Shown here: piece by piece, positions 11,908 through 64,000 of the stretch
Layout: each line of letters begins with the position of its first letter
How positions within the stretch are numbered: the first letter of the stretch is position 1
Source: Candidatus Omnitrophota bacterium
GTDB lineage: Bacteria > Omnitrophota > Gorgyraeia > Gygaellales > Profunditerraquicolaceae
Direction of reading: 5' to 3'
Length of the DNA stretch: 64,000 bases
Assembly: GCA_050012075.1 (NCBI GenBank)
Contig: JBEKHW010000001.1
Span: forward strand, 68,766 to 132,765
Translations under genes and position numbers: made by a program
Notes under the pieces: generated by a model
Database searches by the model: none
Told to the model about the DNA's origin: nothing
Seen by the model: the letters and a program-made list of their open reading frames with translations, nothing else

Positions 11908-11916
11908 ATTCCTCCG

Positions 11917-11991
11917 TAGGGACGGTTCTCAAGCCAAAGCTAAAAGTGTCCCTCAGGGGGACAGTTCTCCGAACAAATTGAGAACCGTCCC
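11917..11991. repeat. REP doublet (family agggacggttctcaa...aagtgtccc / ...gagaaccgtccct) between gltB and gltD
   Basis: Direct match to the REPs flanking the RAYT gene. Internal inverted arms are agggacggttctc and gagaaccgtccct. Confidence 0.7.
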
Positions 11992-11997
11992 TGATTT

Positions 11998-16937: not shown

Positions 16938-17164
16938 ATTTTATGCGGTTAGTGCCTATTGCTTAAGCACGGCCAGACAAAAAAAATTAAGTGAGGACAT
17001 AAGTTATGGAACAAGCTATTGCTTATCTAAACGACATAACTTATATGTCCGAATTAACCCCACACCCAGCCAACAAGCTACATAGCTATGGTTTTCTGGG
17101 TGTGGGGTTAATTCGCGCAAATAACTTACTCTCCGCCTACGGCGGATCGTAAGTTATGCGCTCA

Positions 17165-18670
17165 TTAAATGTCAAAATAAAGATAAAACTCATAGGGATG
17201 CGGACGCATTCTTACCGCATCTATTTCCTTTTTGCGTTTGTATTCAATCCAGATGTCAATCACATCTTTGGTGAATACTCCGCCCTGAAGGAGATAATCA
17301 TGGTCTGCTTCCAGCGCATCAATTGCCCGGCGTAGCGAAGAGGGAACCGTAGCAATCTTGTTCATCTCTTCTTCGCTTAATTCAAACAAATCAACATCAA
17401 CGGGCTCTCCCGGGTCAATCTTATGTTTTATACCGTCTAAACCGGCAAGAAGCATCGCGCTAAACGCAAGGTAAGGATTACAAGCCGGGTCAGGCGGACG
17501 GAACTCAATCCTCTTTGCCTTAGGGTTATCTGTATACATGGGAATCCTTACTGCTGCCGAACGGTTGCGCGCGGAATAAACCAGGTTCACCGGCGCCTCG
17601 TAACCCGGAACCAATCTTTTATAAGAGTTGGTCGTGGGAGCGCAGAAAGCCATTAAGCTATTCGCGTGCTTAAGGAGCCCGCCAATATAATACTTTGCGG
17701 TCTGGGATAGAAGCGCATAACCATTCTTATCATAAAAAAGGTTTACGCCGTTCTTCCATAAACTCTGATGGCAATGCATACCGGAGCCATTATCAGCAAA
17801 CAATGGCTTTGGCATAAAGGTTGCCACCATCCCTGCTTTCCTGGACATATTCTTGATGATATACTTATACATAAGCAGGTTATCCGCCATCTTGGTGAGC
17901 TTATCAAACTTCATATCGATTTCGCACTGTCCTGCGGTAGCTACCTCATGATGGTGCACTTCTACATTGATACCGGCTTCCTTCATCTTCAAAATAATCC
18001 TGCTCCTTAAATCCTGGATAGAATCATGCGGGGGAACCGGGAAATAACCTTCCTTGAAACGGATTTTATAACCAAGGTTTGGATTTTCCATGCGGCCAGT
18101 ATTCCAATCCGCTTCCTGAGAATCAATAAAATAATAACCTGAATTCTCCGTCTGGTCAAAGCGGATATCATTAAAGATGAAAAACTCTGCCTCTGGCCCG
18201 AAATAAATGCTGTCGGCAATACCGGAATCCTTGACATATTTCTCCGCCTTTTTAGCAATATAACGTGGGTCACGGCTGTAGGGTTTACGCGTAATCGGGT
18301 CGTAAATATCGCAGAGCAGGCTTAGAGTAGGGACTTCGCAGCACGGGTCAATAACAGCAGTTAAAGGATCGGGTATGAGAATCATATCCGATTCCTGTAT
18401 TTTCTGGAACCCCCTTATGGAAGAGCCGTCAAAACCGATACCATCCACCCAGATCGAACGCACAATATCATCCATCTCCAGTAATTCTGTCGCGGGGATG
18501 GAAAAATGCTGCCATAGGCCAGGCAGGTCATTGAATTTCAGGTCTATTATCTGGATATTGTTATCCTTGACCATCTTCAGAACATCACGCGCGGCTTTCT
18601 CGTCAAAAGAGCCGTTTACCAATGGATTCATGGTCTTTACCCCCTTGGATTCTTTTGTCTTCTTAGGCAT
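17165..18670 (-). CDS. glnA: Glutamine synthetase type I
   Basis: 501 aa, GS-I fold throughout. Confidence 0.9.
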
Positions 18671-18704
18671 ATCTTTCTCCTCTCTATTTTTTGTCCGAAA
18701 AGAT

Positions 18705-18763
18705 TAAAAAAGCGTTCACCAAAAAAGCCACAACTTTCAGCTCTTTAATGAACGCCTGCGTTC
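18705..18763 (-). terminator. Terminator-like attenuator in the glnA leader with a competing upstream hairpin
   Basis: Minus strand: gaacgc-ag-gcgttca ... tgaacgc + tttttt, 35 nt before the glnA ATG. Confidence 0.5.
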
Positions 18764-18865
18764 TATTTTTATTAGCTGCTTAATTAAGCACCGCTATGTG
18801 CCTAAACTTTGCCTTATTTATACAAGTAAAAAAGCGCCTATCCTGGTAACAGTTTTTTTACCCCG

Positions 18866-21049
18866 TTACTTTATAAATAGCATCTCCCTATACTTTGGTA
18901 AATCCCAATGCTCATCCGAAACAACGCACTCCAGGGCATCACAATGCCTCCTGATATGCTCCATCAGCGGCTTTAGTTCTTTAAAGTATATGGTTGCTTT
19001 TTTGTCTTGATCCATACCCCTGGTTCTCTCCAGCAGACTGATTAACTCTTTAGTGTTCCTGCGCACGTAATAAATCTTGCTGGAAATATCCTTTAAGTGC
19101 TCCCTCTGGTCATTAATCACCGCGGGCGCAATTTTAGCTTTCTTTGAAAGCAGTATCAACCTCTCCAGGTTAGACGCGACCATCTGCTGATACTCAAACC
19201 CCGCCGGGACGATACTGGCGTTAACCATTTCATTAAGGGTATTTGCCTCTATCTCAATAGTCAGGTTATACATATGCATCCAGATATGGTAGCGGGCGAC
19301 GATTTCCTCTTTTGAGAAAACTTTATATTTTTCAAAAAGGGAGATATTTTTCTCCCTGGTCAAGGCCAAAAGGGATTCGGCGGTAGAGGCGATATTAGGA
19401 AGTTTTCTTTTCTTTGCCTCGGAAAGCCAGGCCGAAGCATAATTGTTGCCTTCGAAACGTATATCTTTTGTCTCCTTAAAAATCTTTGCGATCACGCGCA
19501 TGACCTTAGTGTTAAAATCTTTTCCTTTCTCCTTGCGGATTTCTGTAGCCACATAATCAAGGCTTTCCGCGATAATAGTGTTAAGAATGGCTATAGGTGT
19601 TGAGATATTCTGCGAAGAACCCACGGCGCGGAACTCAAATTTTGCGCCTGTAAAGGCAAACGGCGAAGTGCGATTCCTGTCAGTCGTATCTTTATTGAAC
19701 CGCGGCAATCTTGCCAGGCCCAAGTCTATTACATCCTTCTTGGAAACGTTTGATTTTATGCCTTTACCTATCATCTCCACGATTTTAGTCAACTGCTCTC
19801 CAAGAAAAATACTGATAATGGCCGGCGGCGCCTCATTTGCGCCTAAGCGGTGTTCATTTCCTGCCATAGCTACCGATGCGCGCAGGAGGTCCGCATGCAG
19901 GTAAACTGCCCTTAACACTGCTGCCAGGAATGCCAGAAACTGCAGATTATCCTCAGGGGTATCCCCGGGGTTAAGCAGATTGTTACCTAAATTATCTGCC
20001 AAAGACCAGTTCAGGTGCTTACCGCTGCCATTAATGCCGGCAAAGGGTTTTTCGTGTAAAAGGCAGACCAGGTTATGGCGAAGGGCGACTTTTTTCATCG
20101 TCTCCATCAAAAGCTGGTTATGGTCTGCGGCGATATTGGACTCTTCAAAAATAGGCGCGAACTCATACTGGTGCGGAGCAACTTCATTGTGCCTGGTCAT
20201 AACCGGTATTCCCAGTTTATACGCCTCCTCTGCCACCTCAAACATAAAATTAATCATCCGTTCTGTGATAGTGCCTAAATACTGGTCTTCGAGCTGCTGG
20301 CCCTTGGGAGAAGAAGCGCCCACCAGGGTGCGGCCCGTCATTACCAGATCCTGCCGCAGATTATAGTAGTTCTTATCAATCAGAAAATATTCCTGCTCCG
20401 GACCGCAGGTTGAATAAACCTTTAATACATCCTTGTGGCCAAAAAGTTTCAATAAACCTACCGCTGCCTTATTCAATGCTTCGTCGGAACGAAGAAGCGG
20501 TAATTTCTTATCCAGCGCTTCCCCGTGATAAGATATGAATATGGTCGGGATACAAAGAGTTTTACCCAGCGCGCTCTCGCTGATAAAGGCGGGGCTGGAA
20601 GGATCCCACGCAGTGTATCCGCGCGCTTCAAATGTTGCGCGTATTCCTCCGGAAGGAAAGCTGGAAGCATCGGGCTCTCCCTGAATAAGTTTTGAACCGG
20701 AAAATTTTTCAATGACTTTCCCCGGTCCGACAATAGAGATAAAACTATCGTGTTTCTCTGCGGTAAGGCCGGTCATCGGCTGAAACCAGTGGGTATAGTA
20801 GGTTGCGCCCTTTGAGGTAGCCCAATCCTTCATCGCATCGGCAATCTCATTTGCCTGCGTAAGAGTTATGGTTTTTCCTTCATTCAGCCAATCCTTAAAT
20901 GCCTTAAAAGTAGGCCTGGAAATGTGTTTCTGCATAGTTTCTATGCTAAAAGTATTCTCACCGAAATAGGTAGATACCTTTTTAGGTATTTTCACCTTTT
21001 CTAAACTTACTCCCTTAATCCTGAATAATGTATCTTGCCTGATTCCCAT
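18866..21049 (-). CDS. glnN: Glutamine synthetase type III
   Basis: 727 aa, the size of GS-III. GS catalytic motifs are present. Confidence 0.8.
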   Translation of the reverse strand: MGIRQDTLFRIKGVSLEKVKIPKKVSTYFGENTFSIETMQKHISRPTFKAFKDWLNEGKTITLTQANEIADAMKDWATSKGATYYTHWFQPMTGLTAEKHDSFISIVGPGKVIEKFSGSKLIQGEPDASSFPSGGIRATFEARGYTAWDPSSPAFISESALGKTLCIPTIFISYHGEALDKKLPLLRSDEALNKAAVGLLKLFGHKDVLKVYSTCGPEQEYFLIDKNYYNLRQDLVMTGRTLVGASSPKGQQLEDQYLGTITERMINFMFEVAEEAYKLGIPVMTRHNEVAPHQYEFAPIFEESNIAADHNQLLMETMKKVALRHNLVCLLHEKPFAGINGSGKHLNWSLADNLGNNLLNPGDTPEDNLQFLAFLAAVLRAVYLHADLLRASVAMAGNEHRLGANEAPPAIISIFLGEQLTKIVEMIGKGIKSNVSKKDVIDLGLARLPRFNKDTTDRNRTSPFAFTGAKFEFRAVGSSQNISTPIAILNTIIAESLDYVATEIRKEKGKDFNTKVMRVIAKIFKETKDIRFEGNNYASAWLSEAKKRKLPNIASTAESLLALTREKNISLFEKYKVFSKEEIVARYHIWMHMYNLTIEIEANTLNEMVNASIVPAGFEYQQMVASNLERLILLSKKAKIAPAVINDQREHLKDISSKIYYVRRNTKELISLLERTRGMDQDKKATIYFKELKPLMEHIRRHCDALECVVSDEHWDLPKYREMLFIK

Positions 21050-21099
21050 CTTGCCCTCCTAATTAATAATCTATTTTTTAATACCTTATTCTATCATAC

Positions 21100-21142
21100 A
21101 AAATCAAAAAATAAAGGCGTTCTTTTACAAAAAAACGCCTTT
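21100..21142 (-). terminator. Rho-independent terminator after glnK copy 1
   Basis: Minus strand: aaaggcgtttttttgtaaaagaacgccttt followed by a T-run. Confidence 0.6.
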
Positions 21143-21187
21143 ATTTCGGGAACCTTCCCGGGCTGAAACAGAAGTATCCCTGATTAA

Positions 21188-21529
21188 TTAGCCTATTGCA
21201 ACAGACCCCTTCTCTTCAGTCCTGATCCTGATACATTCTTTTAAATCAAGAACGAATATTTTTCCGTCTCCGGTCTCTCCTGTCTTTGCGCCCTTGATGA
21301 TTGCTGCTATGGTCGGCTCGACAAAATTCTCGTTTACCGCAATCTCAAGGCGGATTTTCCTTAAGAGATTACCTGTCTCCTTGTGGCCGCGGTAAACTTC
21401 GGTAACCCCTTTCTGCCGGCCATGGCCGAGAACTTCGCTTACGGTAATAAGATTTACCTCTGCCTTGTAAAGTTCTTCTTTTACATCTTCGAGTTTATGC
21501 GGCTGGATTATCGCAATGATTAATTTCAT
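21188..21529 (-). CDS. glnK: P-II nitrogen regulatory protein (copy 1)
   Basis: 113 aa. Begins [21 protein letters not shown]-loop region is RGHKETG. Adjacent to amt. Confidence 0.9.
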
Positions 21530-21549
21530 ATTAGCCCCCTTTTATCATG

Positions 21550-21577
21550 GTGACTTTGTGACCTGTGACTTTGTGAC
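21550..21577. repeat. GTGACTTTGTGAC-ct-GTGACTTTGTGAC element between amt and glnK (copy 1)
   Basis: Lies in the 52-nt amt-glnK spacer, directly upstream of the glnK ribosome-binding site. Confidence 0.8.
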
Positions 21578-21581
21578 ATCT

Positions 21582-22868
21582 TTATTCAAGTACCGTATAC
21601 GCCCTCTCCCTGTGCTGCGTAAGATCAAGCCCCATGGCTTCTTCTTTTTCGCTGACGCGTATCCTGAAAAATATATCCACAAATTTATATATAATATAGG
21701 TAACAACAAAGGTGTAAGCTACCGCTGCTACAACCCCGATTAACTGTATCAAAAACTGCCGGGGATTACCGGCAAATAAACCATTTGCCCCTGCGGCATT
21801 TATTGCTTTGGAGGCAAATAACCCTGTAGCCAGAGTTCCCAGGATTCCTCCTAAACCATGCACCCCAAAAGCGTCCAGGGAATCATCATAACCGAACTTG
21901 GGCTTGATAACGGCGACCCCGATAAAACACAAGATGCTTGCAAAGACCCCTATTATTAACGCTGAGGAAGGACTAATAAAACCCGAGGCAGGAGTAACCG
22001 TAGCCAGGCCTGCGATAGAACCGGTGACAGCGCCAAACATTGTGGGTTTTCCGTTACGGACCCATTCCAGAAGCGCCCAGGTCAACCCTGCTGCCGCTGC
22101 CGCTGCGTTAGTCGCCACAAATGCACTGACTGCTAGGCCATTTGCCGCTAAAGCGCTACCGGCATTAAAACCAAACCAACCAAACCATAGTAAAGCTGTT
22201 CCCAAGGCTACGAAAGGAAGGTTGTGCGGGACAGGAGTATTGTGCTCCAGGTTCTTTCTTTTGCCGATAGCCAGGGCTACAACTAAAGCAGCAATACCTG
22301 CGCTCGTATGCACTACAATTCCTCCTGCAAAATCAAGGACACCTAAATTCCTTAACCAGCCACCCATTCCCCAAACCCAGTGGCAAAGCGGGTCATAGAC
22401 AAAAGTAGCCCATAGAATGCTAAAAACCAGAAACGCCGAAAATTTCATCCTTTCCGCAAAAGCACCAATAATTAATGCCGGTGTGATTATCGCAAACATC
22501 GCCTGAAAAATCATGAATGCCTGATGAGGGATAGTAGCGCTGTAGCCGCTAAAAGGCTCAATGCCGACCCCATTTAAACCAAACCAACTCAGGCCTCCCC
22601 AGAAACCTTTGCTCGGAGCAAAAGAAAGGCTGTAACCAAAAAGCATCCAATGTACTGTCAATAAACATAATATCACAAAACACTGCATTAGGATACTTAG
22701 GATATTCTTCCTTCTGACCATGCCTCCATAGAAAAATGCCAACCCCGGAGTCATCAACATCACAAAGGCCGTAGAGATTAAAACAAACGCCGTGTCTGCC
22801 CCATTAATCATATTGCCTCCTTCACAGCAGTGAACACTTGCCTCGATAAAACAAGGTGTTCCTTGCAC
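21582..22868 (-). CDS. amt: Ammonium transporter (copy 1)
   Basis: 428 aa, 11-TM Amt/MEP family. C-terminus is EAMGLDLTQHRERAY. Confidence 0.9.
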   Translation of the reverse strand: MQGTPCFIEASVHCCEGGNMINGADTAFVLISTAFVMLMTPGLAFFYGGMVRRKNILSILMQCFVILCLLTVHWMLFGYSLSFAPSKGFWGGLSWFGLNGVGIEPFSGYSATIPHQAFMIFQAMFAIITPALIIGAFAERMKFSAFLVFSILWATFVYDPLCHWVWGMGGWLRNLGVLDFAGGIVVHTSAGIAALVVALAIGKRKNLEHNTPVPHNLPFVALGTALLWFGWFGFNAGSALAANGLAVSAFVATNAAAAAAGLTWALLEWVRNGKPTMFGAVTGSIAGLATVTPASGFISPSSALIIGVFASILCFIGVAVIKPKFGYDDSLDAFGVHGLGGILGTLATGLFASKAINAAGANGLFAGNPRQFLIQLIGVVAAVAYTFVVTYIIYKFVDIFFRIRVSEKEEAMGLDLTQHRERAYTVLE

Positions 22869-22895
22869 AATTGGTTAAACAACTGTGTAAAAACA

Positions 22896-22949
22896 GTTTA
22901 AAAAATAAAGGCGTTCATAACAGTTTGGTCGTAACTATCATGAACGCCT
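22896..22949 (-). terminator. Terminator/attenuator between glnK copy 2 and amt copy 1
   Basis: Minus strand: aggcgttcat-N21-atgaacgcct, then ttatttttt. Confidence 0.6.
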
Positions 22950-23055
22950 AATTGCGCTATCTCATTATAAACACTGCAACGTGCTTATAGCTAGTTACCT
23001 ATACAAGTAATAAACTCGATATTTTGGTAATCCGAATATTTGACTGCTTAAAGAT

Positions 23056-23397
23056 TTACCCAATCGCCAGCGAACCGCGCTCCTCGGTCCTGATTCTTAT
23101 GCACTCCTTTAAATCCAGGACAAAGATCTTGCCATCCCCGGTCTCTCCTGTCTTTGCGCCTTTTATTATGGCTTTTATGGTCGGCTCGACAAAATTATCG
23201 TTTACAGCGATTTCAAGGCGAACCTTTCTAAGCAGATTTCCCGTCTCTTTCGCCCCGCGGTAAACCTCAGTAACACCCTTTTGCCGGCCATGGCCTAGGA
23301 CCTCACTTACGGTAATAAGATTTACCTCTGCCTTATAAAGCTCTTCTTTTACATCTTCGAGTTTATGCGGCTGGATTATCGCAATGATTAATTTCAT
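23056..23397 (-). CDS. glnK: P-II nitrogen regulatory protein (copy 2)
   Basis: 113 aa. Differs from copy 1 at only a few residues; the 5' DNA is identical. Confidence 0.9.
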
Positions 23398-23417
23398 ATT
23401 AGCCCCCTTTTATCATG

Positions 23418-23430
23418 GTGACTTTGTGAC
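23418..23430. repeat. Single GTGACTTTGTGAC unit between amt and glnK (copy 2)
   Basis: Same position as in copy 1, but a single unit. Confidence 0.75.
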
Positions 23431-23434
23431 ATCT

Positions 23435-24718
23435 TTATTCAAGTACAGTATACGCCCTCTCTCTATGCTGCGTAAGGTCAAGTCCCATGGCTTCTTCTTT
23501 TTCGTTGACGCGTATGCCGATAAATACATCCACCAGTTTATAGATTATAGCTGTTACTGCCAGAGAGTAAATTAGCGTGACCGCCACGGCAGTTAACTGC
23601 ACCAGGAATTGCTTTGGGTTGCCAAAGAAAAGCCCGTCTCCACCCGCAGCATTTACGCTCTTCGAAGCAAAAAGCCCGGTAGCTAATGCGCCCCATATAC
23701 CGCCTACACAGTGCACGCCAAATGCGTCCAGGGAATCGTCATAACCGAACTTGGGCTTGATAATACTGACGGCAGTAAAACAGAAGACACTTACCAGCAA
23801 TCCTATAATAATCGCCGGAATTACGCTCACAAACCCGGCTGCGGGAGTGATGGCTACGAGGCCCGCTACTGCTCCTGAAGCTGCGCCGAAAATGGTAGGT
23901 TTGCCGTTACGAATCCATTCAATTATTGCCCAGCTTAACCCGGCGCTAGCTGCTGCGGTATTGGTAACCACAAAAGCATTCACTGCCAGGCCATTTGCCG
24001 CTAAAGCACTGCCGGCATTAAAACCAAACCAGCCAAACCAGAGAAGACCTGTGCCCAAGATTACAAAAGGCATATTGTGCGGTGCAGGAACATCTTTTTC
24101 TATATTCCTCCTCTTGCCGATAAATAATGCTGTTACCAACGCAGCAATACCCGCATTTATGTGTACTACGGTGCCGCCGGCAAAATCAAGAGCGCCCATC
24201 TGTCTTAAGAACCCGCCGACCCCCCAGACCCAGTGACAAACAGGGTCATATACAAATGTCGCCCACAGGAGCACAAAAGCAACAAATGCGGAAAACTTCA
24301 TTCTCTCTGCAAATGCACCCAGTATTAATGCCGGTGTGATTATCGCAAACATCGCCTGAAAAATCATAAATGCCTGATGCGGGATTGTACCTGCGTAATC
24401 CGCATACGGCCCAAAACCTACTCCCTTTAACCCAAGCCAGCCAAAGCCGCCCCAAAATCCAGTCGAAGGCGCAAAAGAAAGGCTATAGCCATATAAAACC
24501 CACTGCACACTTATGACACACATTATTATGAAACACTGCATAAGTATGCTTAGGATGTTCTTCTTCCTGACCATGCCGCCATAGAAGAATGCCAGCCCCG
24601 GGGTCATCAGCATAACCAGGGCCGAAGAAATCAAAACCCATGCCGTATCACCTGCATTAATCATTTCTACCCTCCCTTGCCCACAAAGGGCACACTTGCG
24701 CAATACCGATAAGCGCAA
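23435..24718 (-). CDS. amt: Ammonium transporter (copy 2)
   Basis: 427 aa. Paralog of 21582..22868. Confidence 0.9.
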   Translation of the reverse strand: MRLSVLRKCALCGQGRVEMINAGDTAWVLISSALVMLMTPGLAFFYGGMVRKKNILSILMQCFIIMCVISVQWVLYGYSLSFAPSTGFWGGFGWLGLKGVGFGPYADYAGTIPHQAFMIFQAMFAIITPALILGAFAERMKFSAFVAFVLLWATFVYDPVCHWVWGVGGFLRQMGALDFAGGTVVHINAGIAALVTALFIGKRRNIEKDVPAPHNMPFVILGTGLLWFGWFGFNAGSALAANGLAVNAFVVTNTAAASAGLSWAIIEWIRNGKPTIFGAASGAVAGLVAITPAAGFVSVIPAIIIGLLVSVFCFTAVSIIKPKFGYDDSLDAFGVHCVGGIWGALATGLFASKSVNAAGGDGLFFGNPKQFLVQLTAVAVTLIYSLAVTAIIYKLVDVFIGIRVNEKEEAMGLDLTQHRERAYTVLE

Positions 24719-54514: not shown

Positions 54515-54741
54515 CTTTCCTATCCTTTCTTTTAATGGGGAATGGGATATATGAGGACGAATTACCTTAAAAACGAATACTAAAATGTAACATATATTTA
54601 CTTTTAGGTCAAGATTTTTTTGCCTACATTGGCATCTACCTGGCGCTAATCGGAATTGCGCCAGTATTGCCCTCGTGGGCAAACCCACGCAAGGCGTAAC
54701 TTCTTCACTCTCTTACCTATATGTGTATAGATAATCCTGCA

Positions 54742-55461
54742 TTACCTGGCTGCCAATAAGCCGGACATTCCCATTAAATTGGCCCTTTCAAGGTTCACGC
54801 CTACCCGGAAATTCTCCCTGCCGCCTTTTTCGCACCAGGCCACTTCCCCGCGTAAATAATGCGGCTCTTGCCTCCCCGGGACTTCTACCCACATCTCTAT
54901 GGGCGCGCTATTGGATAATTGCCCATTCAGGGTAATACCTAGCCCCTTGGCGCTGATATCGTTTGTCCAGCCCCTGCCTTCCTGGTTGGAAAATAAATCA
55001 ATGTAACGCAGGTTAAAGCGCGCCGGAAACCGTTCAAAAACCCGCTTGTCGGAAAACTTCTCTCCTTCCATATTCTCACCACCTTTCTTATTTTCTTCTT
55101 TGATACCCCTGCGCCATTCTTTCTTGATTTGTCCTGCGCAGTAGCGCCGGGCAAATTGGCTGATTTTTTCTTTATCGTCGTCGCTTATCTTACTAAAATA
55201 CAACCCGTATACATTATGGCCGTCTATTATCTTCTGCCAGGCCACCCAGCATGTTGCTTCTACAGAGCAATCCTTGCTTAGTGTAATGCGCAAGTTCTTA
55301 TAGGTATCTTTCTCTATCCTGCGGCTGATAATAATCTGCGCGCCCTTAAAACAAATATCCCTGAGCTGGCAATCGACAGATTCTTTACCGTCGCCCACTG
55401 CCACCTTTACCTGTTTATACAACAGGTAACGCTGGAATTCTCTACGCTCTTTAATCTCCAT
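54742..55461 (-). CDS. Tandem PilZ-domain protein
   Basis: 239 aa. Two RxxxR ... D/NxSxxG units: RREFQRY...LRDICFKGAQI and DKRVFERF...TNDISAKGLGI. Confidence 0.6.
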   Translation of the reverse strand: MEIKERREFQRYLLYKQVKVAVGDGKESVDCQLRDICFKGAQIIISRRIEKDTYKNLRITLSKDCSVEATCWVAWQKIIDGHNVYGLYFSKISDDDKEKISQFARRYCAGQIKKEWRRGIKEENKKGGENMEGEKFSDKRVFERFPARFNLRYIDLFSNQEGRGWTNDISAKGLGITLNGQLSNSAPIEMWVEVPGRQEPHYLRGEVAWCEKGGRENFRVGVNLERANLMGMSGLLAAR

Positions 55462-55467
55462 CGCCGT

Positions 55468-56262
55468 TTAACTAATGCCTGTCCACCACTGTTTTCTTAG
55501 CTCCTTCGGGAAATTGCTCTCAACATAATCATAGATCCTGGTTTTATATGCGTCATTGAGGTCGTGAAAGCGCAGCCCATAACAGCAATCCTGTTCGCCA
55601 TCCTGGCTCCAGGCAACAGACGCCTCTGTCCGAAAACCCAAACCGTCTGCCAGATCCACCCTTATCCTTGATAATGCTTCGGGAAATACCTTCCGGGGCA
55701 AAAACACACGCATCCCCTCGGTGCTTATATCCCTGACCGTACACGGCATCCCCCTGCCGCACTCTTGATCAAGCATGATCTGTGCCGGTTGATTCACTTC
55801 CCATCTCACCATCTTCCTGCGCTCATCCATCTTATTCTCACCTCCCTTCCCCGCTAGGGGACACCCGCGCAATTTCCCCACAGAGGGGACACCGGCGCAA
55901 TTCAAATAAGCGCCGGGTGCATGCATCGCACGAGGTGCTATTGTTTTCCCGTGGCTTTTCTGTACTAACTGGCGATTAATTAATTTAGACGCAGCTGTAA
56001 ATAAAATGGGCAACTCTCGTGCGGAAAGATACGGGGCAAGATGACGCGTTAAGGCATCACTTTTAGATGGGGTGTTGTCTGGAAGTTTTTCAAAATCCGC
56101 TCTTACCTGCAACATCTTTCCTCGTGTTGGCTTCCGGTGTTCTTGCGTAACAGAAACTTCTTGCTTCCCCAAAGGAGAAAATAAGTCTCTGCGCCTTCCG
56201 TGGCTAGATCGCAGGCTGCTATTGTTACCCATTATTATATCCCAAGTTACGTAAAATATCAT
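55468..56262 (-). CDS. PilZ-domain protein (PilZ at the C-terminus; N-terminal start uncertain)
   Basis: ERRKMVRWEV ... VRDISTEGMRVFLP. Confidence 0.5.
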   Translation of the reverse strand: MIFYVTWDIIMGNNSSLRSSHGRRRDLFSPLGKQEVSVTQEHRKPTRGKMLQVRADFEKLPDNTPSKSDALTRHLAPYLSARELPILFTAASKLINRQLVQKSHGKTIAPRAMHAPGAYLNCAGVPSVGKLRGCPLAGKGGENKMDERRKMVRWEVNQPAQIMLDQECGRGMPCTVRDISTEGMRVFLPRKVFPEALSRIRVDLADGLGFRTEASVAWSQDGEQDCCYGLRFHDLNDAYKTRIYDYVESNFPKELRKQWWTGIS

Positions 56263-56315
56263 ATTTTATTTTTACTCATTGTGTTGCTTTTAAAATATCC
56301 ACCTCTGCCCAAAAA

Positions 56316-59300
56316 TTATGGCAGAGGAGGAGACTTCTGCAGTATCCGTAACCATTCAATCAGCTGAATTAAGGAACTTATTTTTTCACCCACAAAAACA
56401 TACCTGGAGTCATCTACATATATCGGCCCTACCTTATCGTATCTGACGGGGCCGTATTCCTCTTCTTCCGTAAAGGCGATTTCAGGGAGCCTGGCCGGCG
56501 TCGATGAGCTTTTCCCGGCAACATCGCAACCCGTATCTGGTTTGTTTCCGGATGCCGGCGAGCTGCCGATATTATCCTTACTTTTTTTTGTTTTACTCAC
56601 TACTGCCTTACCCATCTTTCTCCGGCAAGCGTTGATTAGGTCGGTCTGGGGATAGGTCAATCCTTCATCATTTTCTAAGGCACCAATTTGATCCAATATG
56701 GCTTTTGCCTTGTGCTTGCGGCCTTTACCCAGGGCATTAGTTAGCTGCCAATATAAATTGCTGAATTTTCTTTCTTGTTCCAGTGCCTCTTGTTCGCCAT
56801 CCGTGTCAAGAGAAGATAACTGGGATGTTTTCTCTGGGAGTGCCTGTGTTAAAAACAATGGCACAGGTTCTCTTTTAAATTTAATCGTCATTATGGCAAC
56901 ATAACGCAGCTGTGTGCCCTTTTCTGCTGCCGCTTCAATTAATTTCTTTTCTGCGTAATCCAGAGCCTTTATAATCTCATTATCCTCTCCGCAATTATTA
57001 GGTAATGTCTCAATATGCTCACGGAAGAACGCCAACAAGAAGGGCCATTCATTCAACTTCACGATATGCTCGATCTGTTCCGCGAGCGTCTTCCCCTTTA
57101 ACTCACGACGGCTCCGGAGCTTGTCTTTTAAATAATCGCTTTTGTCCAGCCACCCCATGGCCGCCTCGCATCTTTCTATAGTAAAATCTGGGGCCTTTAG
57201 CTCCTCTACTGCCAGCTGCGCTTCATCCTGCGCCGGAGAGCTGCCGGTTACTCCAGAATTATCCTTTCCGCCGCCTGCGCCGCCGCCTTGAGGTCCATTG
57301 CGTAAAGACACTTTATTACCGTGACTCTCATTCTCTTCTGGATCCATGCTACGCAAGACAAATTCATCATCTTTAAGAAGAGCAACTTTAAATTGACTCC
57401 TTAAACCTTTTATAAAATCAGACAATTCTACCTTGCCGTCCTCCGTTGCTAAATTCCAAGTATTGGGAAAAATTAAAACATGGGTAGATGGGCTAATATT
57501 ACCCAACAGATTAAATAGCCTTTTGAGTGCATGCGGCATGAGATGATGTATTACTGCATTAATCATTATAAAATCCGCTGAAAGGGCGCGATTTATAATA
57601 TTCTCATCAATAATATTCCCAAAAATTAGTTCAATTGAATCTTTTACAAAAGGTAAGTTTCGATTCACGAAATTAACCTTTGCCTGATAACGTTCAAATT
57701 CCCGCTGAGACGGTAAGTCAGGATTTTTTAACTCAAAACCAGAATCTAAATGGATTCTTGCTAGAGATAAGAAATCTTGTTCTATATCAACCCCCGTAAC
57801 TTTTAGCTGAAGGTTCTTCCCAAATTTTATACCCCATTCAGGATGTCTACTGACTTCATCAAACACAACAGCAGCTAGCGAGGCAGGCTCCTCTCCGGTA
57901 CCACAACCTAAACTCCACATATTTATCTTAACAGGTAATTCGTTATTATGTTTTTCCCTATCTATAATTATCGCTAAAGATTGCCTTATGTACTCGTATT
58001 CTTTATCACATCTTAAACAATCAGATTGGCTAACTACAATAAGATACTGATCTATAAGATACTGATGAGCCGAAGAATTCACATTATTCAAGTCAGCAAT
58101 AACCCGATGAATATCATAGTTATACTGCCTGAAACAATCATACAAATAAGAAGCCCCAGACTGCTGCGCTGACATCTCTTCTATCAATTGCCTGAGAAAA
58201 TTCAAAGAGGTTGGCGCTCTTCGAGAATCGCCGAACACCTTCTCATAAATACCTGTGCTGTAAAAAACATTCTCGATTGTTTTTATTTCTGCCTGACTGA
58301 TATTATAGCGGGACATAATATCGTGTAGTTCCGATAACATTCCCTCTTTCTCCGCCGGCGAGCTGCCGCGCTTAATAACTTCAGTAAACTTAATCGCTGT
58401 CTCTAGGGGGTTTGCTACCTGGGTAATCGCTGAATTTACCAGGAAACCATTAAATCCTATCATTAATGCTTGCCTGGCCTGTTCGGGGACACCTATACCG
58501 CACTCAGCAATTAACGAAATATCCGGCCGTATTTCCCTAACCCACCTTATGATATCTTTCATTTTCGTAATATCGCCCAAACCTTGGTTAGAACCCGGCT
58601 TTGTCCCTTCAATACGTAAAGCAATGACCTGAGGCGTTTTTAACAATTTTTTTAGCTTTGCTCTGCCAATATCTTTTCCTATTAAAGGGATAATCTTAAT
58701 GTTTTTGTTTAATCCAGCTAACTTACGGGTTGCTTCCAGAATATTGTCATTTTTAGTCATGAAATTATCATCTCTGATTTCAAGCTTAACATAAGGAGAT
58801 TTCATAATCATAATCCCTAACCCTGCCATTTTTACAGCCGCATCCACTGTTTGACACCTACTGGTATTGATGAGAATAATAAAATCTCTGGTTTTATTTT
58901 GTTTGGTTAATTTCTCATGAACTAATTTTATATAATCTAACTGCGCAAATTCCGACACTGAATTTAAATCACCTTCTTTACCCAACCTGCACCAGCCAGC
59001 ATTATCTTCAATCTCGGCTTTCTGCAGATAGCTCTCCATAGGTTTTATATGATATCCGGCCCTCATGTTTAATTCTTCGATACGCACAGGTGTAAAAATA
59101 AAGAATTGTGCGTTTGACTCTACGACAATGTCAGCTGCTATTTCCGTGGTAAGGATTTTAATGCAACTTCCTTTACCACGCGCATCATTAGATATATGTG
59201 TAATGGCTAGCGGAGCGATAAAAGGATATAATTGTCTATTATCAATTACTATACCGCCGTGCCTGCCCGCGCTGGCGGCAGGGCTGCTGCCGCACACACT

Positions 59301-62300
59301 AACGAAACCATCGGATTGTACTTGGTAAGCATCATCGGTGGCAGATTCAGCGGCAAGTTTTCGTGCCTCTTCGGGAATATAACAGTCTTCCAGCCATTTC
59401 AGGTTATTTTCAATCACCGCCCGTTCCTGAATCTCGCCTGCAAATGCCCTGGGAAAGATAATCTTTCCCCCCTCCTCTAATAATTTCTTCTTTGCCTGCA
59501 ACCAATAAGATACATTACAAGATATTGGTTGGTACTTCCATCCCTTCGGAAGACGGTCATTAACTTCGTGTATGGCTATTTGATAAGGAATCAAGATTTC
59601 AATCGCCCTTAATCTTTGGTTAATTTCCTGGATGTTCATCTCAATTGCTGCGTCTGCGTTTTTCCTTAACAACTCTTTCTTGGCCACCAACCATTCCCTT
59701 ACCGGTGAAAATAAATCTAATCCTTCATCGATCAGCCGGTCAATCACTTCATAGTAGGCGTCTCTATATGCCGCCGCTAATTTACCCGCTATCTCGGGTT
59801 TGATGAGCAACCCTAGATTGGCTTTTTGCGCCCTATGGTGCTCAATTTGGTCAATAAGTTTTGCGATATAATTATAGAATTCCTCCGCTATTTCAGGCAT
59901 CTTTGGCAACATTTGCTCTAAATTGCGTTTGGTCTGTCTTAAGGCCGTCAGGTTGGCTAAAGTACTGATTTCTTCTAATTCTAATGGGCGTAAGATTAGC
60001 GCTTCCAGCAAATCCTGGTTAAGCTTGAGGACGATGCTGAAAAATTCCTCTTTTAAAGCGGCTTTTCTCTGAACCCATTTTTTTCTCTCCCTGTTAAATA
60101 AGCTTCGGGAAAAATCCTGGATTTGTTTAATGTCCCATGGCGATAAACCGTCAGGCCATTCCTGACAAAATACTATTTCTCGCATAATCTCCAACATTTG
60201 CCTAATTTCTTCAAGGTCGGTAAGCTGGAGTATTTCGCCAGCTACTAAGCTGCGGATCTCGAGATGCGGAGAACGCAGCCTTGCTTTCAACCTCTCTAGT
60301 TTATGCTCCCAAAGTTCCGTAGTTGTTTCGTACACAGTTATTGTTTCCTCGGGCAGCTCTGAGTCGCCCTCACTGCCGGCAGGGCTGCTGCCGCGGATGT
60401 ATTTTTTCCTGTCTGCTAATTTTGCCAAAACTTCTTCTGCTTCAAGCAATCGCAAGACATTACGGTCATGCGCGCGGATATCGGTAAATAACTTCTGCCT
60501 ATCTATTTGTTTATCTGTAATTGCAGTATACCAGTTAGCCAGATGAGAAACCGAGTTCCACTGCGCCATGGTAATACCATTGAATACGCGGGCTCCCTTG
60601 TTATGCGCCTGATATAAGAACGGGGTGACCAATGGGTCTGTGATAATATCAATCACGGTTTGCCTTCGCGAAATTATTTTTGCGGCACCGGCAAAAGGAA
60701 CCGGGCCGTGCAAATCAGAATGCATGCCAACACCGGTGGCATTAACTATTACCAAGGAATTACGTAAAAGTTTTTTAGATTCAATGAAATTGAACCTACC
60801 AAAACCCATAGACTCCATAATCTGGAGCTTTTCAATGCCTGCACCCGCTAAGGCAAAATTAATTTCCATTCCTGCCCCGCCCAAGCCTAGAATCGTGAGA
60901 GTTCTTTTTTTCCAATTTGGCGGAAACTGGCTTTTGTACGCCTTAAGAAACGCAGCGCCATCTGTAGCGTCAAGCATTAACCGACCGTCTTTCTTAGTTA
61001 TATGGTTAATCGCCCCGGCTTCCTCAACGGCATCCGAAGCAATAACTAAATGCTTGTATTCTCTGGACATATAAATCTCCTTGGCTCTCATTTTCCAAGG
61101 CGCGGTCACTACGGCTCCGATTACACGCGGAGAGTCTTTCATCAAAGCCAATGCCTCGGCAAGTTGCGTTTCGTCTTGCACGGGATACGACACGCGAAGC
61201 GCATCAAGGCCTAAAATATTTCTAAAGGCGTTTTCATATTTCTTATCGGAATTTAGCGAGCCGGATTTTCCTATAAATAATGCAAATTTTGTGCTCTTGT
61301 TGACGGCAAATCCTTCCTGCTCTGCCAGAACCTCAAGCTCATCTTCAAAATTGGAGACGGTTCTATTTTTCGCCGGCGAGCTGCCAGCAGTAAGGCTTGC
61401 TGTTTGAGGCCCCTCTTTGGATTTATTTTGCGCAGCATATTCAAGGGCATTCAAGTACCACCACTGGGCTTCGCGGGAGACCTTCCATGCTCTTATGTCT
61501 ATCCTATTTTTAAAAATGGGGCCGTCTAATACTATCGTGTGATAATCATTATAATCTCCTATTAAGTCAATATTACTATCATGCAAGAACTTCATAAAGT
61601 CAGAGTCTATTTTATGGCCAAGCCATGACCTGCCGATAGCTTCCGATGGGGTGCTTACGACAATTGCCTCAAACCCGTCATGCAAGAAATTCCTAAGAGC
61701 GTCTTCCGGTCCCTGTTCATATAAAAGTTGGGGCGCATCCAATCCAAGCTCTGCGCATGTCTGCTTAAGCCATAATGCATTTATGCAGGGCCCGAATTCA
61801 TGCCCTCCGAAGATACAACCCCTGATCTTCCGGTCATTGCTCCTAAGTTCTGCTATGGCATCCATGAATTCAACTGAATCGTAATATTCTCCCCGTACCT
61901 CTTTTTTATAAAGAGAAACCCCCAATGCATTTGCCTGCAATTGCAATAATCCTGTTTCTGTCCCATGAAAACATACTCTTGTCTGCTTTTCTGAAACAAA
62001 ACTAACGAGGGAAGAAACGTTATATCCTTTCTGCAGCGCCCGATACAAAGCATGGCAGCAATCTTTCCCGCCACTCCAGAATAACAAATAATGCCCATTC
62101 GCCGGCGAGCTGCCGACTTCCTTTGGCCTCTCTGCTGGCCGACCATTCGCCGGCGCGGATGTGCCTGCCTGGGAAAGTCCGCCGGATTCAAGGCCCGGCA
62201 TTCTTTGATTATCAAGCAGATTATTTTCACTGCCGCGGTGGAAAACATTATCCGGCTCCAATCCCTTGATCCTACACAGATGCTCATGGAAAAAGTTATT

Positions 62301-64000
62301 ATATTGAGCTGTTGTCATTTCCGGCTTTAAGAGATCGCTATATCCTCTTAAGACCTTCAAAAATTCGCTGTATTGTGTATTATAAACTGTCTCATATCTT
62401 GTCTCTGCGGACGGCGTTCTTTGCGCAAGGGCTTTTCCAGATTCTTGATGGAGGCTGGCGATAATCCTGTCTAATGCGAGGCGAGCTTGTTCTATTCTCC
62501 CCTTCCTTGCCTCTATTGTTTGAGCCACAATTGGGCCAATGGCAGACCTGATCCTCTGGACAAACTCTTTGAATTTCACAGAATATGCATCTGCGGGCTG
62601 TCTTGTCGAAGGAACTTCTTGCAATTTTCTAATTTTACCGAGGATGTCTGAACGGTTAAGCTCAAAAGCACATAAAAATATTCTTAGCGCCATATAATAG
62701 CCGAATTTTTTGCCGTTTTCTCTGATATTACCGCGGGCAATGCTGATATTCTGCATTCCTTTAATGATCTGATGCAGCCAGTCATCTATTTCTGCCTGTT
62801 CTGAAGCCAGTCCGCCTTGCTGGATATATAAATCTCCTGCATCTTCCGCCGGAGAGCTGCCGCGGCCGCCCGCGTTGCCGCCAAACTCCCCATCTAATAC
62901 TAAATGCCCTGAAGCGTAATAATCTATATCTATATAATCTCGCACACTCCCCTCTAATTCTAATATAGTTTTGCCTGTAACAAGAACTAACCTTTTAAGT
63001 TGTGTGCAGCCCCAGAGAAAATCTTTTATTCTACAAATTTGTGCCACTATCTTCATAACATTATCTCGCAACTCCCAATCATTCTCTCTTAATATACAGC
63101 TTAAAACTGCCCTATCGCCGAAATTATCCATTCCTAGCTTATGTACGATAAGCCGTGCTTCTTGCTTATTGAGCCCAAGCATGAGAAATTTATCGGCAAT
63201 GTTCCAATAATTTCTATACGAGGCGCGTAGTTTATCACAGTTTCGTTTTAATGTGGCCTTGTCCCTAATAACAGCTCCTATAAAAGAATCGAATTCTTTA
63301 ATTACTTTATTTATCTCATCAAACGCCTGCCTTGCCCAGTCCCTGAATTTCTCCATTTTATCCAGCTCCATGACCGCTGCTGCCATATTATTTATTTCAA
63401 CCCAGTTACCGGGAATACCTGATTTTATAATACCTTGGGGCATTTCACGGCTATAAAAAGGCGAAAATCTATTTATCTTTTGCACCAATATCTCGCCATT
63501 ATTCTTATATCCTTCTTGGGCTCCTAAAACGCCGCCATTACCGCGGCCCGAAAGAATTGCATAAACAGCTCTTTCCTTTAAATGCCTTGCCGCTGTAATA
63601 AATAGCGTATCTATAGAACCTGTTGCCTCTTGAATATTTATATTATTGGTTACAAAAAGACGCTCTTCATCGTCTTTTCCAATACTAATATTATGACCGA
63701 TTATAATCGTGTCTTTTTCTAAATAAACTTTCTCATCAATATTTCCAAAGAGAATAATTTTATGCGTGAATTTCTTGACGATTTTTAGAAAACGGCGATT
63801 TTTATTTACCGGAAGGGGTGTGTTTACGACTATCGGAGGATGCTTAAGGGGTAATTTTGTTATAATTTTTTCTAGTGCCCTATAGCCGCCTTGAGATGCC
63901 CCGACTACAATAATTTTCCCTTTAAAATCCGGGACAGTTAGATTTTTCTTCTCTATTGCTCCGCTACCTACGCCTGCCTTGCGCTCTAGGCTTTCTCTTA
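56316..64000 (-). CDS. Giant multidomain protein, 5'-partial (>2560 aa). Domain order is CheB-like methylesterase, unknown helical, PP-loop ATPase-like, shikimate-dehydrogenase-like, long helical, ThiG-like TIM barrel, CheR-like methyltransferase, unknown. Domains are joined by recurring GSSPA junctions.
   Basis: The frame is open from 63488 to the window edge. My translation of 63489-64000 gives ...IIVVGASQGGYRALEKI...SIDTLFITAARHLKERAVYAILSGRGNGGVLGAQE..., a CheB catalytic-domain signature. The listed 'M' at 63488 is a TTG codon. Other motifs: LLFWSGGKDCCHAL (PP-loop); GAVVTAPWK...NATGVGM (AroE-like); KSPYVKLEIRDDN...ECGIGVPEQARQALMIGFNGFLVNSAIT (ThiG-like); WSLGCGTGEEPASLA (CheR-like). Confidence 0.8.
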   Translation of the reverse strand, partial: RESLERKAGVGSGAIEKKNLTVPDFKGKIIVVGASQGGYRALEKIITKLPLKHPPIVVNTPLPVNKNRRFLKIVKKFTHKIILFGNIDEKVYLEKDTIIIGHNISIGKDDEERLFVTNNINIQEATGSIDTLFITAARHLKERAVYAILSGRGNGGVLGAQEGYKNNGEILVQKINRFSPFYSREMPQGIIKSGIPGNWVEINNMAAAVMELDKMEKFRDWARQAFDEINKVIKEFDSFIGAVIRDKATLKRNCDKLRASYRNYWNIADKFLMLGLNKQEARLIVHKLGMDNFGDRAVLSCILRENDWELRDNVMKIVAQICRIKDFLWGCTQLKRLVLVTGKTILELEGSVRDYIDIDYYASGHLVLDGEFGGNAGGRGSSPAEDAGDLYIQQGGLASEQAEIDDWLHQIIKGMQNISIARGNIRENGKKFGYYMALRIFLCAFELNRSDILGKIRKLQEVPSTRQPADAYSVKFKEFVQRIRSAIGPIVAQTIEARKGRIEQARLALDRIIASLHQESGKALAQRTPSAETRYETVYNTQYSEFLKVLRGYSDLLKPEMTTAQYNNFFHEHLCRIKGLEPDNVFHRGSENNLLDNQRMPGLESGGLSQAGTSAPANGRPAERPKEVGSSPANGHYLLFWSGGKDCCHALYRALQKGYNVSSLVSFVSEKQTRVCFHGTETGLLQLQANALGVSLYKKEVRGEYYDSVEFMDAIAELRSNDRKIRGCIFGGHEFGPCINALWLKQTCAELGLDAPQLLYEQGPEDALRNFLHDGFEAIVVSTPSEAIGRSWLGHKIDSDFMKFLHDSNIDLIGDYNDYHTIVLDGPIFKNRIDIRAWKVSREAQWWYLNALEYAAQNKSKEGPQTASLTAGSSPAKNRTVSNFEDELEVLAEQEGFAVNKSTKFALFIGKSGSLNSDKKYENAFRNILGLDALRVSYPVQDETQLAEALALMKDSPRVIGAVVTAPWKMRAKEIYMSREYKHLVIASDAVEEAGAINHITKKDGRLMLDATDGAAFLKAYKSQFPPNWKKRTLTILGLGGAGMEINFALAGAGIEKLQIMESMGFGRFNFIESKKLLRNSLVIVNATGVGMHSDLHGPVPFAGAAKIISRRQTVIDIITDPLVTPFLYQAHNKGARVFNGITMAQWNSVSHLANWYTAITDKQIDRQKLFTDIRAHDRNVLRLLEAEEVLAKLADRKKYIRGSSPAGSEGDSELPEETITVYETTTELWEHKLERLKARLRSPHLEIRSLVAGEILQLTDLEEIRQMLEIMREIVFCQEWPDGLSPWDIKQIQDFSRSLFNRERKKWVQRKAALKEEFFSIVLKLNQDLLEALILRPLELEEISTLANLTALRQTKRNLEQMLPKMPEIAEEFYNYIAKLIDQIEHHRAQKANLGLLIKPEIAGKLAAAYRDAYYEVIDRLIDEGLDLFSPVREWLVAKKELLRKNADAAIEMNIQEINQRLRAIEILIPYQIAIHEVNDRLPKGWKYQPISCNVSYWLQAKKKLLEEGGKIIFPRAFAGEIQERAVIENNLKWLEDCYIPEEARKLAAESATDDAYQVQSDGFVSVCGSSPAASAGRHGGIVIDNRQLYPFIAPLAITHISNDARGKGSCIKILTTEIAADIVVESNAQFFIFTPVRIEELNMRAGYHIKPMESYLQKAEIEDNAGWCRLGKEGDLNSVSEFAQLDYIKLVHEKLTKQNKTRDFIILINTSRCQTVDAAVKMAGLGIMIMKSPYVKLEIRDDNFMTKNDNILEATRKLAGLNKNIKIIPLIGKDIGRAKLKKLLKTPQVIALRIEGTKPGSNQGLGDITKMKDIIRWVREIRPDISLIAECGIGVPEQARQALMIGFNGFLVNSAITQVANPLETAIKFTEVIKRGSSPAEKEGMLSELHDIMSRYNISQAEIKTIENVFYSTGIYEKVFGDSRRAPTSLNFLRQLIEEMSAQQSGASYLYDCFRQYNYDIHRVIADLNNVNSSAHQYLIDQYLIVVSQSDCLRCDKEYEYIRQSLAIIIDREKHNNELPVKINMWSLGCGTGEEPASLAAVVFDEVSRHPEWGIKFGKNLQLKVTGVDIEQDFLSLARIHLDSGFELKNPDLPSQREFERYQAKVNFVNRNLPFVKDSIELIFGNIIDENIINRALSADFIMINAVIHHLMPHALKRLFNLLGNISPSTHVLIFPNTWNLATEDGKVELSDFIKGLRSQFKVALLKDDEFVLRSMDPEENESHGNKVSLRNGPQGGGAGGGKDNSGVTGSSPAQDEAQLAVEELKAPDFTIERCEAAMGWLDKSDYLKDKLRSRRELKGKTLAEQIEHIVKLNEWPFLLAFFREHIETLPNNCGEDNEIIKALDYAEKKLIEAAAEKGTQLRYVAIMTIKFKREPVPLFLTQALPEKTSQLSSLDTDGEQEALEQERKFSNLYWQLTNALGKGRKHKAKAILDQIGALENDEGLTYPQTDLINACRRKMGKAVVSKTKKSKDNIGSSPASGNKPDTGCDVAGKSSSTPARLPEIAFTEEEEYGPVRYDKVGPIYVDDSRYVFVGEKISSLIQLIEWLRILQKSPPLP

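Follow-up and report, generated by a model that had tools for sequence, protein, structure and literature searches.

In this article, I will discuss a giant open reading frame (ORF) on the minus strand at the end of a 64,000-nucleotide stretch of Candidatus Omnitrophota DNA (GenBank assembly GCA_050012075.1, contig JBEKHW010000001.1, positions 68,766 to 132,765; the whole of this stretch is called the window below), in which one and the same pentapeptide, G-S-S-P-A, stands at eight joints between unrelated modules. The ORF is composed of at least nine protein-sized modules followed by a C-terminal tail of 78 amino acids (aa); its N-terminus lies beyond the window end, and statements about the protein refer to the visible 2,560 aa. 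Judging from sequence, and with about as much belief as doubt, I propose that it encodes a polyprotein-like chain in which the GSSPA joints would be recognition sites, putatively cut by an endopeptidase.

The initial annotation, made from the letters of the DNA alone, had noticed at least eight such junctions in this one ORF, and there are exactly eight, at positions that it had placed correctly to within about 20 nucleotides (nt). From the amino-acid composition of the protein one would expect 0.0018 copies of GSSPA, and each 'GSS' and each 'SPA' of the protein belongs to one of the eight motifs. In the other 16,881 residues of the long minus-strand ORFs of the window the motif is absent, and the sole other GSSPA in any of the six reading frames lies on the plus strand at 14895, opposite the minus-strand glutamate synthase gene. 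At the DNA level, the 15-mer that encodes the motif occurs six times when up to two mismatches are allowed (0.14 expected), and the degenerate pattern GGCAGC[TA][CG]NCCNGC occurs eight times, in every case inside the giant ORF. All junction copies share one frame and one strand and none is found elsewhere in the 64 kb, so that the worry, voiced beforehand, of a 15-mer also scattered over non-junction sites finds no instance within the window. The variant counts given earlier need a small correction, in that GGCAGCTCGCCGGCG, said to occur four times, is present as three exact copies and one copy ending in A, and GGCAGCTCTCCGGCG and GGCAGCAGCCCTGCC(G) do occur twice each. The octamer reported at one junction was also found, as GCGGCCGC directly before junction 1. 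The 'duplicated gccggcgaatgg' ascribed to two junctions is actually junction 2 (S-S-P-A-N-G) together with a decayed copy of it, the two being joined by an exact 13-nt direct repeat (62095-62107 and 62143-62155, 48 nt apart). Beyond the 15 nt and the five residues, the flanks of the junctions are unrelated in DNA and in protein, save for weak extensions in a few junction pairs.

The case is at its strongest where module boundaries are concerned. The eight junctions divide the visible protein into segments of 379 (N-terminally truncated), 249, 243, 331, 367, 308, 374 and 226 aa and a tail of 83 aa, where each segment after the first is counted with its leading GSSPA; without the motif, the modules span 221-379 aa and the tail 78 aa. 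Five modules are enzyme-like, resembling CheB, Dph6, shikimate dehydrogenase (SDH), ThiG and CheR, and four have no family match, also when the unmatched modules were scanned with Pfam at weak thresholds. The families CheB_methylest, Diphthami_syn_2, ThiG and CheR are represented by one copy each, with no family dominating, and all NCBIfam scores fall under the curated cut-offs, and the modules are therefore best described as divergent and enzyme-like. The CheB-like domain (63375-63911, minus strand) illustrates this divergence: alignment to PDB entries 1CHD and 1A2O shows the nucleophile Ser retained (GASQGG), catalytic His190 replaced by Thr and Asp286 by Gly, and the domain is probably not an active methylesterase.

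For three of the modules, the ends can be compared with proteins that nature has left on their own. In the alignment, 17 free-standing Dph6-like proteins have their start in the column of GSSPA and stop just short of the following one, and module 2 matches free-standing proteins of about 225 aa from end to end. For the SDH-like module, the C-termini of proteins P0002 and P0003 lie 16 residues past a conserved helix motif, and the next GSSPA of the ORF follows 13 residues past that same motif, after '...KKYIR'. The free-standing ThiG-like protein P0170 (47% identity to module 5) aligns from 16 aa past one GSSPA to 2 aa short of the next. The termini of these homologues coincide with the junctions, and the Dph6-like, SDH-like and ThiG-like segments are in this sense complete mature proteins. 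Structure prediction with AlphaFold gives a matching picture of what lies between them: the stretch holding the Dph6-like and SDH-like modules is modeled as two confident domains with low-confidence segments at 1-21, 254-269 and 604-614, and the predicted local distance difference test (pLDDT) score is below 50 at 254-269, which includes the GSSPA at 264-268. The model of module 4 shows a helical domain, with disorder at residues 1-25 and 353-367; the idea that it might be a protease or another known fold was dropped, as the model is all-helical and Foldseek returned nothing from the PDB at E ≤0.001. The linkers are disordered, roughly 10-40 residues long and rich in Gly, Ser, Pro, Ala and charged residues, and only GSSPA is invariant within them. 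The earlier claim that each junction sits at a module boundary is thus borne out, with modules that match whole free-standing proteins and a motif that sits in disordered linkers.

It was also claimed that the nucleotide sequence itself is conserved, and not just the peptide, and here the codons tell a divided story. The second Ser of the motif is encoded by TCG four times, by TCT twice and by AGC twice, and the two AGC copies also shift the Pro and Ala codons from CCG/GCG to CCT/GCC, which shows that selection acts on the peptide; it is the peptide that stays constant. The part of the claim that does stand is an excess of identical codons, with 91 identical-codon pairs at the motif against 32 expected from the codon usage of the gene itself (P<5e-5), GGC for Gly and AGC for the first Ser being used in all eight copies, and with junction 15-mers that are 80-87% GC in an ORF whose GC content at third codon positions (GC3) is 0.41. 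This similarity above expectation suggests that the junctions were copied from one another as modules were added. Junctions 4 and 5, both of the AGC type and located on either side of module 4, go further and share 29 nt at 90% identity (59265-59293 and 60366-60394, reading GSSPA-ASAG and GSSPA-GSEG), an arrangement that resembles a duplicated insertion site. Over all junction pairs the similarity of the flanks is marginal (maximum, P=0.16; mean, P=0.06), and the order in which the junction variants follow one another is unremarkable (2 adjacent identical pairs, 1.25 expected).

Now considering that a motif of this kind should be visible in other proteins built in the same way, its relatives become informative. 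No close relative of the whole protein is present in the collections searched. A word-index protein search returned no match for the whole ORF or for modules 0 and 1 and, for modules 5 and 6, one free-standing ThiG-like protein only; genome and metagenome scans returned only distant single-module relatives, and protein clusters of the neighboring genes revealed no related strain with a long contig. Exhaustive HMMER searches with modules 1-4, in contrast, brought up other giant proteins, each of which shares one module with the ORF, at different positions. Module 4 is also found in P0001 (46-49% identity) and P0096, two other giant proteins of Omnitrophota; the SDH-like module is found in P0002-P0004, P0009, P0032 and P0038, the giants among these being P0004, P0009, P0032 and P0038; and the Dph6-like module is shared with the giant protein P0012. 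P0001, P0002, P0012 and P0096 come from Omnitrophota metagenome-assembled genomes (MAGs) and P0032 from an Elusimicrobia/Obscuribacterium MAG. The word-index search seems to lose sensitivity on long multi-domain queries, the 49%-identity relative of module 4 having been found by HMMER.

Two of these giants carry a recurrent delimiter of a different sequence, R-[SA]-E-[AVTM]-R in P0009 (20 copies in 6,248 aa) and the same R-S/A-E-A/V-R-type motif in P0038 (eight copies in 3,078 aa and zero in 3,775 aa of neighboring genes). P0009 and P0038 have only the SDH-like module in common (41% identity), yet they use the same delimiter, and they write it with many codons, including both CGN and AGR for Arg and both TCN and AGC for Ser; codon identity at these motifs is nonetheless above expectation too. 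Sites of an A-S-L-G type in P0004 are borderline in number (5, against a null maximum of 5), though well placed. The placement is precise, since exactly 7 residues separate the end of the delimiter from the F/V-E-x-x-L helix of the SDH-like module in the ORF (GSSPA-KNRTVSN-FEDEL), in P0009 (RAEAR-DTISIAE-FEKRL) and in P0004 (ASLG-QKTPMER-FEAEL), and the same spacing can be read by eye in P0038 (KSEVR-AEVDPRK-VESVL), which the pattern search did not match. Furthermore, two modules of P0009 have Tat/lipoprotein-type signal peptides right after the delimiter, one of them still with its own Met, which points to modules that formerly were, or currently are, independent proteins. P0012 and P0175 (with G-K-SSPA-A after their Dph6-like module) were considered as second proteins of the GSSPA type and rejected, as neither has a recurrent motif.

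Some further observations on these relatives deserve mention in their own right. On contig L005 (1586-30332), two giant ORFs of 6,248 aa and more than 6,307 aa stand back to back, one base apart, and both have the R-S/A-E-A/V-R motif; and double delimiters with short spacers of 13-78 aa also occur in P0009 and P0038. Just upstream of the P0038 gene and on the same strand (L004, 6001-9621) are genes for a seven-transmembrane (7TM) protein with a transglutaminase fold (a papain-like fold), an ATP-grasp enzyme and three small ORFs, of which the transglutaminase-fold protein might be considered as a processing peptidase. In another Omnitrophota MAG (L001, 8282-11092), the SDH-like module lies at the C-terminal end of a protein of 936 aa that begins with a signal peptide, and P0003, a version of 403 aa, likewise has one; in some lineages, the SDH-like module may work outside the cytoplasm.

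How could all this fit together? The ORF encodes a long multi-enzyme protein in which each recognizable module corresponds to a protein that is complete and free-standing elsewhere, and the GSSPA in each linker would be read by one and the same trans-acting protein. I infer such a factor because the same five residues have been retained at eight unrelated joints and other lineages keep another motif at the homologous spot, where R-S/A-E-A/V-R, and perhaps A-S-L-G, would take the place of GSSPA. The reader would most likely be a site-specific endopeptidase, which would release the individual modules from the chain in the manner of a polyprotein, since this is the most economical candidate to fit both the termini of the free-standing homologues and the internal export signals of P0009, and cutting would yield equimolar module products from a single translation. 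The junctions would be related by descent, new copies having been made as modules were joined, with selection on the peptide maintaining them afterwards. Of the possibilities that the initial annotation had offered, 'conserved inter-domain linkers or processing sites in a polyprotein' therefore still leads, given whole-protein modules, disordered linkers and a peptide kept across synonymous codon classes. A bolder version, which I put forward tentatively and with somewhat more doubt than conviction, is that some Omnitrophota and related uncultured bacteria may make true cellular polyproteins, equivalents of operons that would be translated as a single chain and cut by a dedicated protease at lineage-specific delimiters of 4-5 residues (GSSPA in this ORF, R-S/A-E-A/V-R in others), with the same delimiters serving as joints for adding modules and exchanging them between giant genes.

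Several points weigh against the polyprotein-like chain. Cleavage at GSSPA is a prediction, and no protease domain was detected in the visible part of the protein with Pfam, NCBIfam or the weak-threshold Pfam scans. Within module 0, no GSSPA separates the CheB-like domain from the roughly 170 residues that follow it. No recurrent motif is found in the giant relatives P0001, P0032, P0096 and P0175, and a delimiter is consequently not a general requirement for proteins of this kind; where motifs are lineage-specific, protease and sites would need to change together. Selection on the peptide alone also does not account for the excess of identical codons.

These points feed directly into the competing explanations, of which the one I take most seriously, unlikely as I consider it, is that GSSPA is a standardized linker that is never cut, whether it acts as a hinge, is docked by a partner or chaperone or is modified (e.g., by Ser-Pro phosphorylation or glycosylation), in one working multi-enzyme chain. 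Uncleaved fusions of several enzymes are widespread, as in AROM and in polyketide synthases and nonribosomal peptide synthetases (PKS/NRPS), and a motif embedded in disordered linkers rich in Gly, Ser, Pro, Ala and charge, the lack of a protease domain in the visible part and the existence of related giants with no delimiter at all would suit such a chain well. Passive linkers, on the other hand, would not normally preserve exactly five residues at eight unrelated joints amid variable flanks, the delimiters stand at the exact columns where free-standing homologues start and end, and those of P0009 directly precede intact N-terminal export signals, and such signals should work only at a free N-terminus. 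In sequence data, a docking or modification site is indistinguishable from a cleavage site.

Distinctly less probable is that the 15-mer acts mainly at the DNA level, as a short recombination site for the insertion, exchange or conversion of module cassettes, with the peptide as a by-product. The initial annotation had suggested such a cassette-shuffling module, and the suggestion retains some weak support in that the same modules appear in other orders in different giant proteins; codon identity far above expectation, the invariant GGC and AGC codons, GC-rich islands in a gene of much lower GC3, the 29-nt repeat around module 4 and the decayed duplicate of junction 2 can be added on this side. 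Against it stand the switch of Ser from TCN to AGC with the peptide unchanged, the many different codons in which relatives write their delimiter, the restriction of the copies to one frame and strand and to one gene of the 64 kb, the marginal similarity of the flanks and the ordinary order of the variants. Moreover, 15 nt is shorter than homologous recombination usually requires, and a search for integron-like features found no conserved flanks of the 15-mer, no paired inverted repeat and no integrase or recombinase match among the 30 ORFs of the window that were scanned. A DNA-level account could still describe how the junctions spread, beside a function of the peptide, and would be partial at most. 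A signal in the RNA or in translation, such as a GC-rich hairpin or a codon string that pauses ribosomes at module boundaries, or a site of mRNA processing, is very improbable: it could draw on the same excess of identical codons and on mini-hairpins of 4-5 bp that both main variants can form (GGCAG...CUGCC and CGGC...GCCG), yet 90-nt windows around the junctions show no consistent difference in folding energy from shuffled sequences (z from -2.0 to +1.4), Rfam gave no match, the peptide is kept across nucleotide changes that look non-synonymous, and no consistent start codon or Shine-Dalgarno sequence follows the junctions. An artefact, be it a chimeric assembly or chance repeats in a non-coding frame, can be set aside almost entirely. 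The initial annotation had named an assembly or chimeric artefact lacking read support across the junctions as a refutation, and an independent Logan assembly (run SRR7028477) is 100% identical over 54575-59724 and thereby covers four of them, which is why they are not an assembly chimera; the frame is also open for 7.7 kb with five in-frame Pfam domains, and the statistics of the motif leave no room for chance.

Table 1. Coordinates of the giant ORF, its modules and its junctions in the window.
Feature	Positions	Strand	Description
Giant ORF	56316..63998	minus	at least 2,560 aa; stop codon 56316-56318; frame open to window end at 63998
Module 0 (N-terminally truncated)	62862-63998	minus	CheB-like domain, then about 170 aa without family match
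Junction 1	62847-62861	minus	GGCAGCTCTCCGGCG = GSSPA; GCGGCCGC directly before
Module 1	62115-62846	minus	244 aa, without family match
Decayed junction copy	62142-62159	minus	S-A-P-A-N-G; 15 codons upstream of junction 2 (S-S-P-A-N-G)
Junction 2	62100-62114	minus	GGCAGCTCGCCGGCG = GSSPA
Module 2	61386-62099	minus	Dph6/MJ0570-like PP-loop ATP pyrophosphatase; SGGKD motif present
Junction 3	61371-61385	minus	GGCAGCTCGCCGGCG = GSSPA; linker of pLDDT<50 between Dph6-like and SDH-like domains
Module 3	60393-61370	minus	SDH-like Rossmann module
Junction 4	60378-60392	minus	GGCAGCAGCCCTGCC = GSSPA, alternative codons
Module 4	59292-60377	minus	all-helical, without known fold or family match
Junction 5	59277-59291	minus	GGCAGCAGCCCTGCC = GSSPA, alternative codons
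Module 5	58368-59276	minus	ThiG-like TIM barrel
Junction 6	58353-58367	minus	GGCAGCTCGCCGGCG = GSSPA
Module 6	57246-58352	minus	CheR-like S-adenosylmethionine (SAM) methyltransferase
Junction 7	57231-57245	minus	GGCAGCTCTCCGGCG = GSSPA
Module 7	56568-57230	minus	221 aa, without family match
Junction 8	56553-56567	minus	GGCAGCTCGCCGGCA = GSSPA
C-terminal tail	56319-56552	minus	78 aa past the last junction, without family match

The host is a Candidatus Omnitrophota MAG: the ATP synthase beta subunit of the window and seven other proteins, among them PilZ, permease, GH2 and TPR proteins, match exactly NCBI entries that are labelled as coming from such a MAG (MGD0335535.1, MGD0335575-83). The giant ORF lies in an ordinary chromosomal neighborhood, which includes an F-type ATP synthase, glutamate synthase, two glutamine synthetases, two ammonium transporters, NAD synthase, MnmG, ribonucleotide reductase, a sugar ABC transporter, GH2 enzymes and, directly downstream, two PilZ genes. 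No mobile-element context was seen around the ORF, its neighbors being chromosomal housekeeping genes: among the 30 window ORFs scanned with Pfam, no recombinase or integrase, phage or protease family was matched, the PADLOC defence library returned nothing above noise, and a PHROGs scan returned one CheB-like family and no other phage family. In the visible part of the ORF no transmembrane segment was found, and this part of the protein is soluble. The two PilZ-domain genes form a tandem on the same strand (54742-56262), the first of them being 120 aa long in the NCBI call and 264 aa here. Over 1-56262, ORFs of at least 150 aa are nearly all on the minus strand, with a few overlapping exceptions, GC skew is negative throughout the 64 kb, and no tRNA genes are found in the window. 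A nitrogen-assimilation cluster occupies 10462-24718, with the large and small subunits of glutamate synthase, glutamine synthetases of types I and III and the two ammonium transporters, and a further protein with a Glu_synthase domain is encoded at 309-1949.

Giant genes are a hallmark of Omnitrophota, and published work on them leaves undecided whether the product remains one chain or is cut (bioRxiv 10.1101/2023.11.21.568195). GSSPA at the exact ends of modules provides concrete candidate cut sites for Omnitrophota giant proteins, and the delimiters can be put to use in existing metaproteomes, in splitting giants before structure prediction and in the search for a protease by phylogenetic profiling. 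If cleavage is true, it would be a cellular counterpart of viral polyprotein expression, delivering several enzymes in fixed stoichiometry per translation; if it is false, the motif still marks out the modules of an otherwise opaque class of protein.

It remains to place the ORF among known systems, since the initial annotation had stated that none with this architecture was described, which goes too far: multi-enzyme giant proteins of Omnitrophota have been described, and MARTX toxins and viral polyproteins are mechanistic precedents. The latter two are functionally the closest by analogy, and the ORF belongs to neither. Viral polyproteins, such as those with picornavirus 3C or potyvirus NIa sites, carry a short boundary peptide that is read by one protease and varies by lineage, and the ORF resembles them in being one frame whose segments are complete proteins, with GSSPA at 8/8 boundaries and in a linker of pLDDT<50. 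Unlike them, it resides on a cellular chromosome (near genes for ATP synthase, GOGAT, glutamine synthetase, ribonucleotide reductase and MnmG), has no protease family in its visible modules, in the two PilZ genes that follow it or elsewhere among the 30 scanned ORFs, and has sites that are unusually alike at the codon level. The MARTX toxins of Vibrio are giant secreted proteins with tandem unrelated effector and enzyme domains, released by cutting at unstructured linkers and reshuffled in content between strains; they have RTX-type repeats and a built-in cysteine protease domain (CPD), and their cleavage sites are loose (Leu at P1). The ORF shares with them the tandem arrangement of unrelated domains separated by unstructured linkers in a giant bacterial protein and differs in its invariant pentapeptide, its soluble visible part and its housekeeping-type enzyme folds; no family of RTX-type glycine-rich repeats and no CPD is among the Pfam and NCBIfam matches of the nine segments of the visible part.

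Other processed or composite proteins are further removed. Mycoplasma hyopneumoniae adhesins, cleaved at S/T-X-F|X-D/E, and Porphyromonas gingipain polyproteins are also large proteins that are processed at a short recurring motif. These are surface adhesins and proteases with degenerate, different motifs, whereas the ORF is a chain of cytoplasmic-type enzymes. The polyvalent proteins of phages and conjugative elements, reportedly treated by Iyer, Burroughs and Aravind in 2017, are said to be very long, to bring together numerous unrelated domains with enzymatic functions and to undergo proteolytic processing. Unlike these, the ORF shows no mobile-element context, no phage families (bar the one CheB-like PHROG) and no defence families above noise. 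I know of no invariant junction peptide described for polyvalent proteins.

The class to which the ORF comes closest in kind is that of the Omnitrophota giant proteins themselves, described as 'class 1, multi-enzyme metabolic clusters' at a cut-off of 10,000 aa or more, a size reached by roughly 5,700 Omnitrophota proteins (bioRxiv 10.64898/2026.06.07.730766), and, as giant genes, by West-Roberts et al., who state that the cleavage points are not known (bioRxiv 10.1101/2023.11.21.568195). The ORF comes from the same phylum, is tiled by many unrelated enzyme-type Pfam families of which none is dominant, combines methyltransferase with signaling-type content and, as reported there, is nearly unique in sequence. 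It differs in size, with at least 2,560 aa visible and its N-terminus outside the window, against 10,000 aa or more, and in its recurrent junction peptide, those papers mentioning neither such a peptide nor linker motifs or cleavage sites. No description of a recurrent junction motif was found in the literature, where searches for GSSPA and RSEAR were uninformative. The multi-enzyme giant protein class is itself already described, and what appears to be new here is the recurrent junction motif.

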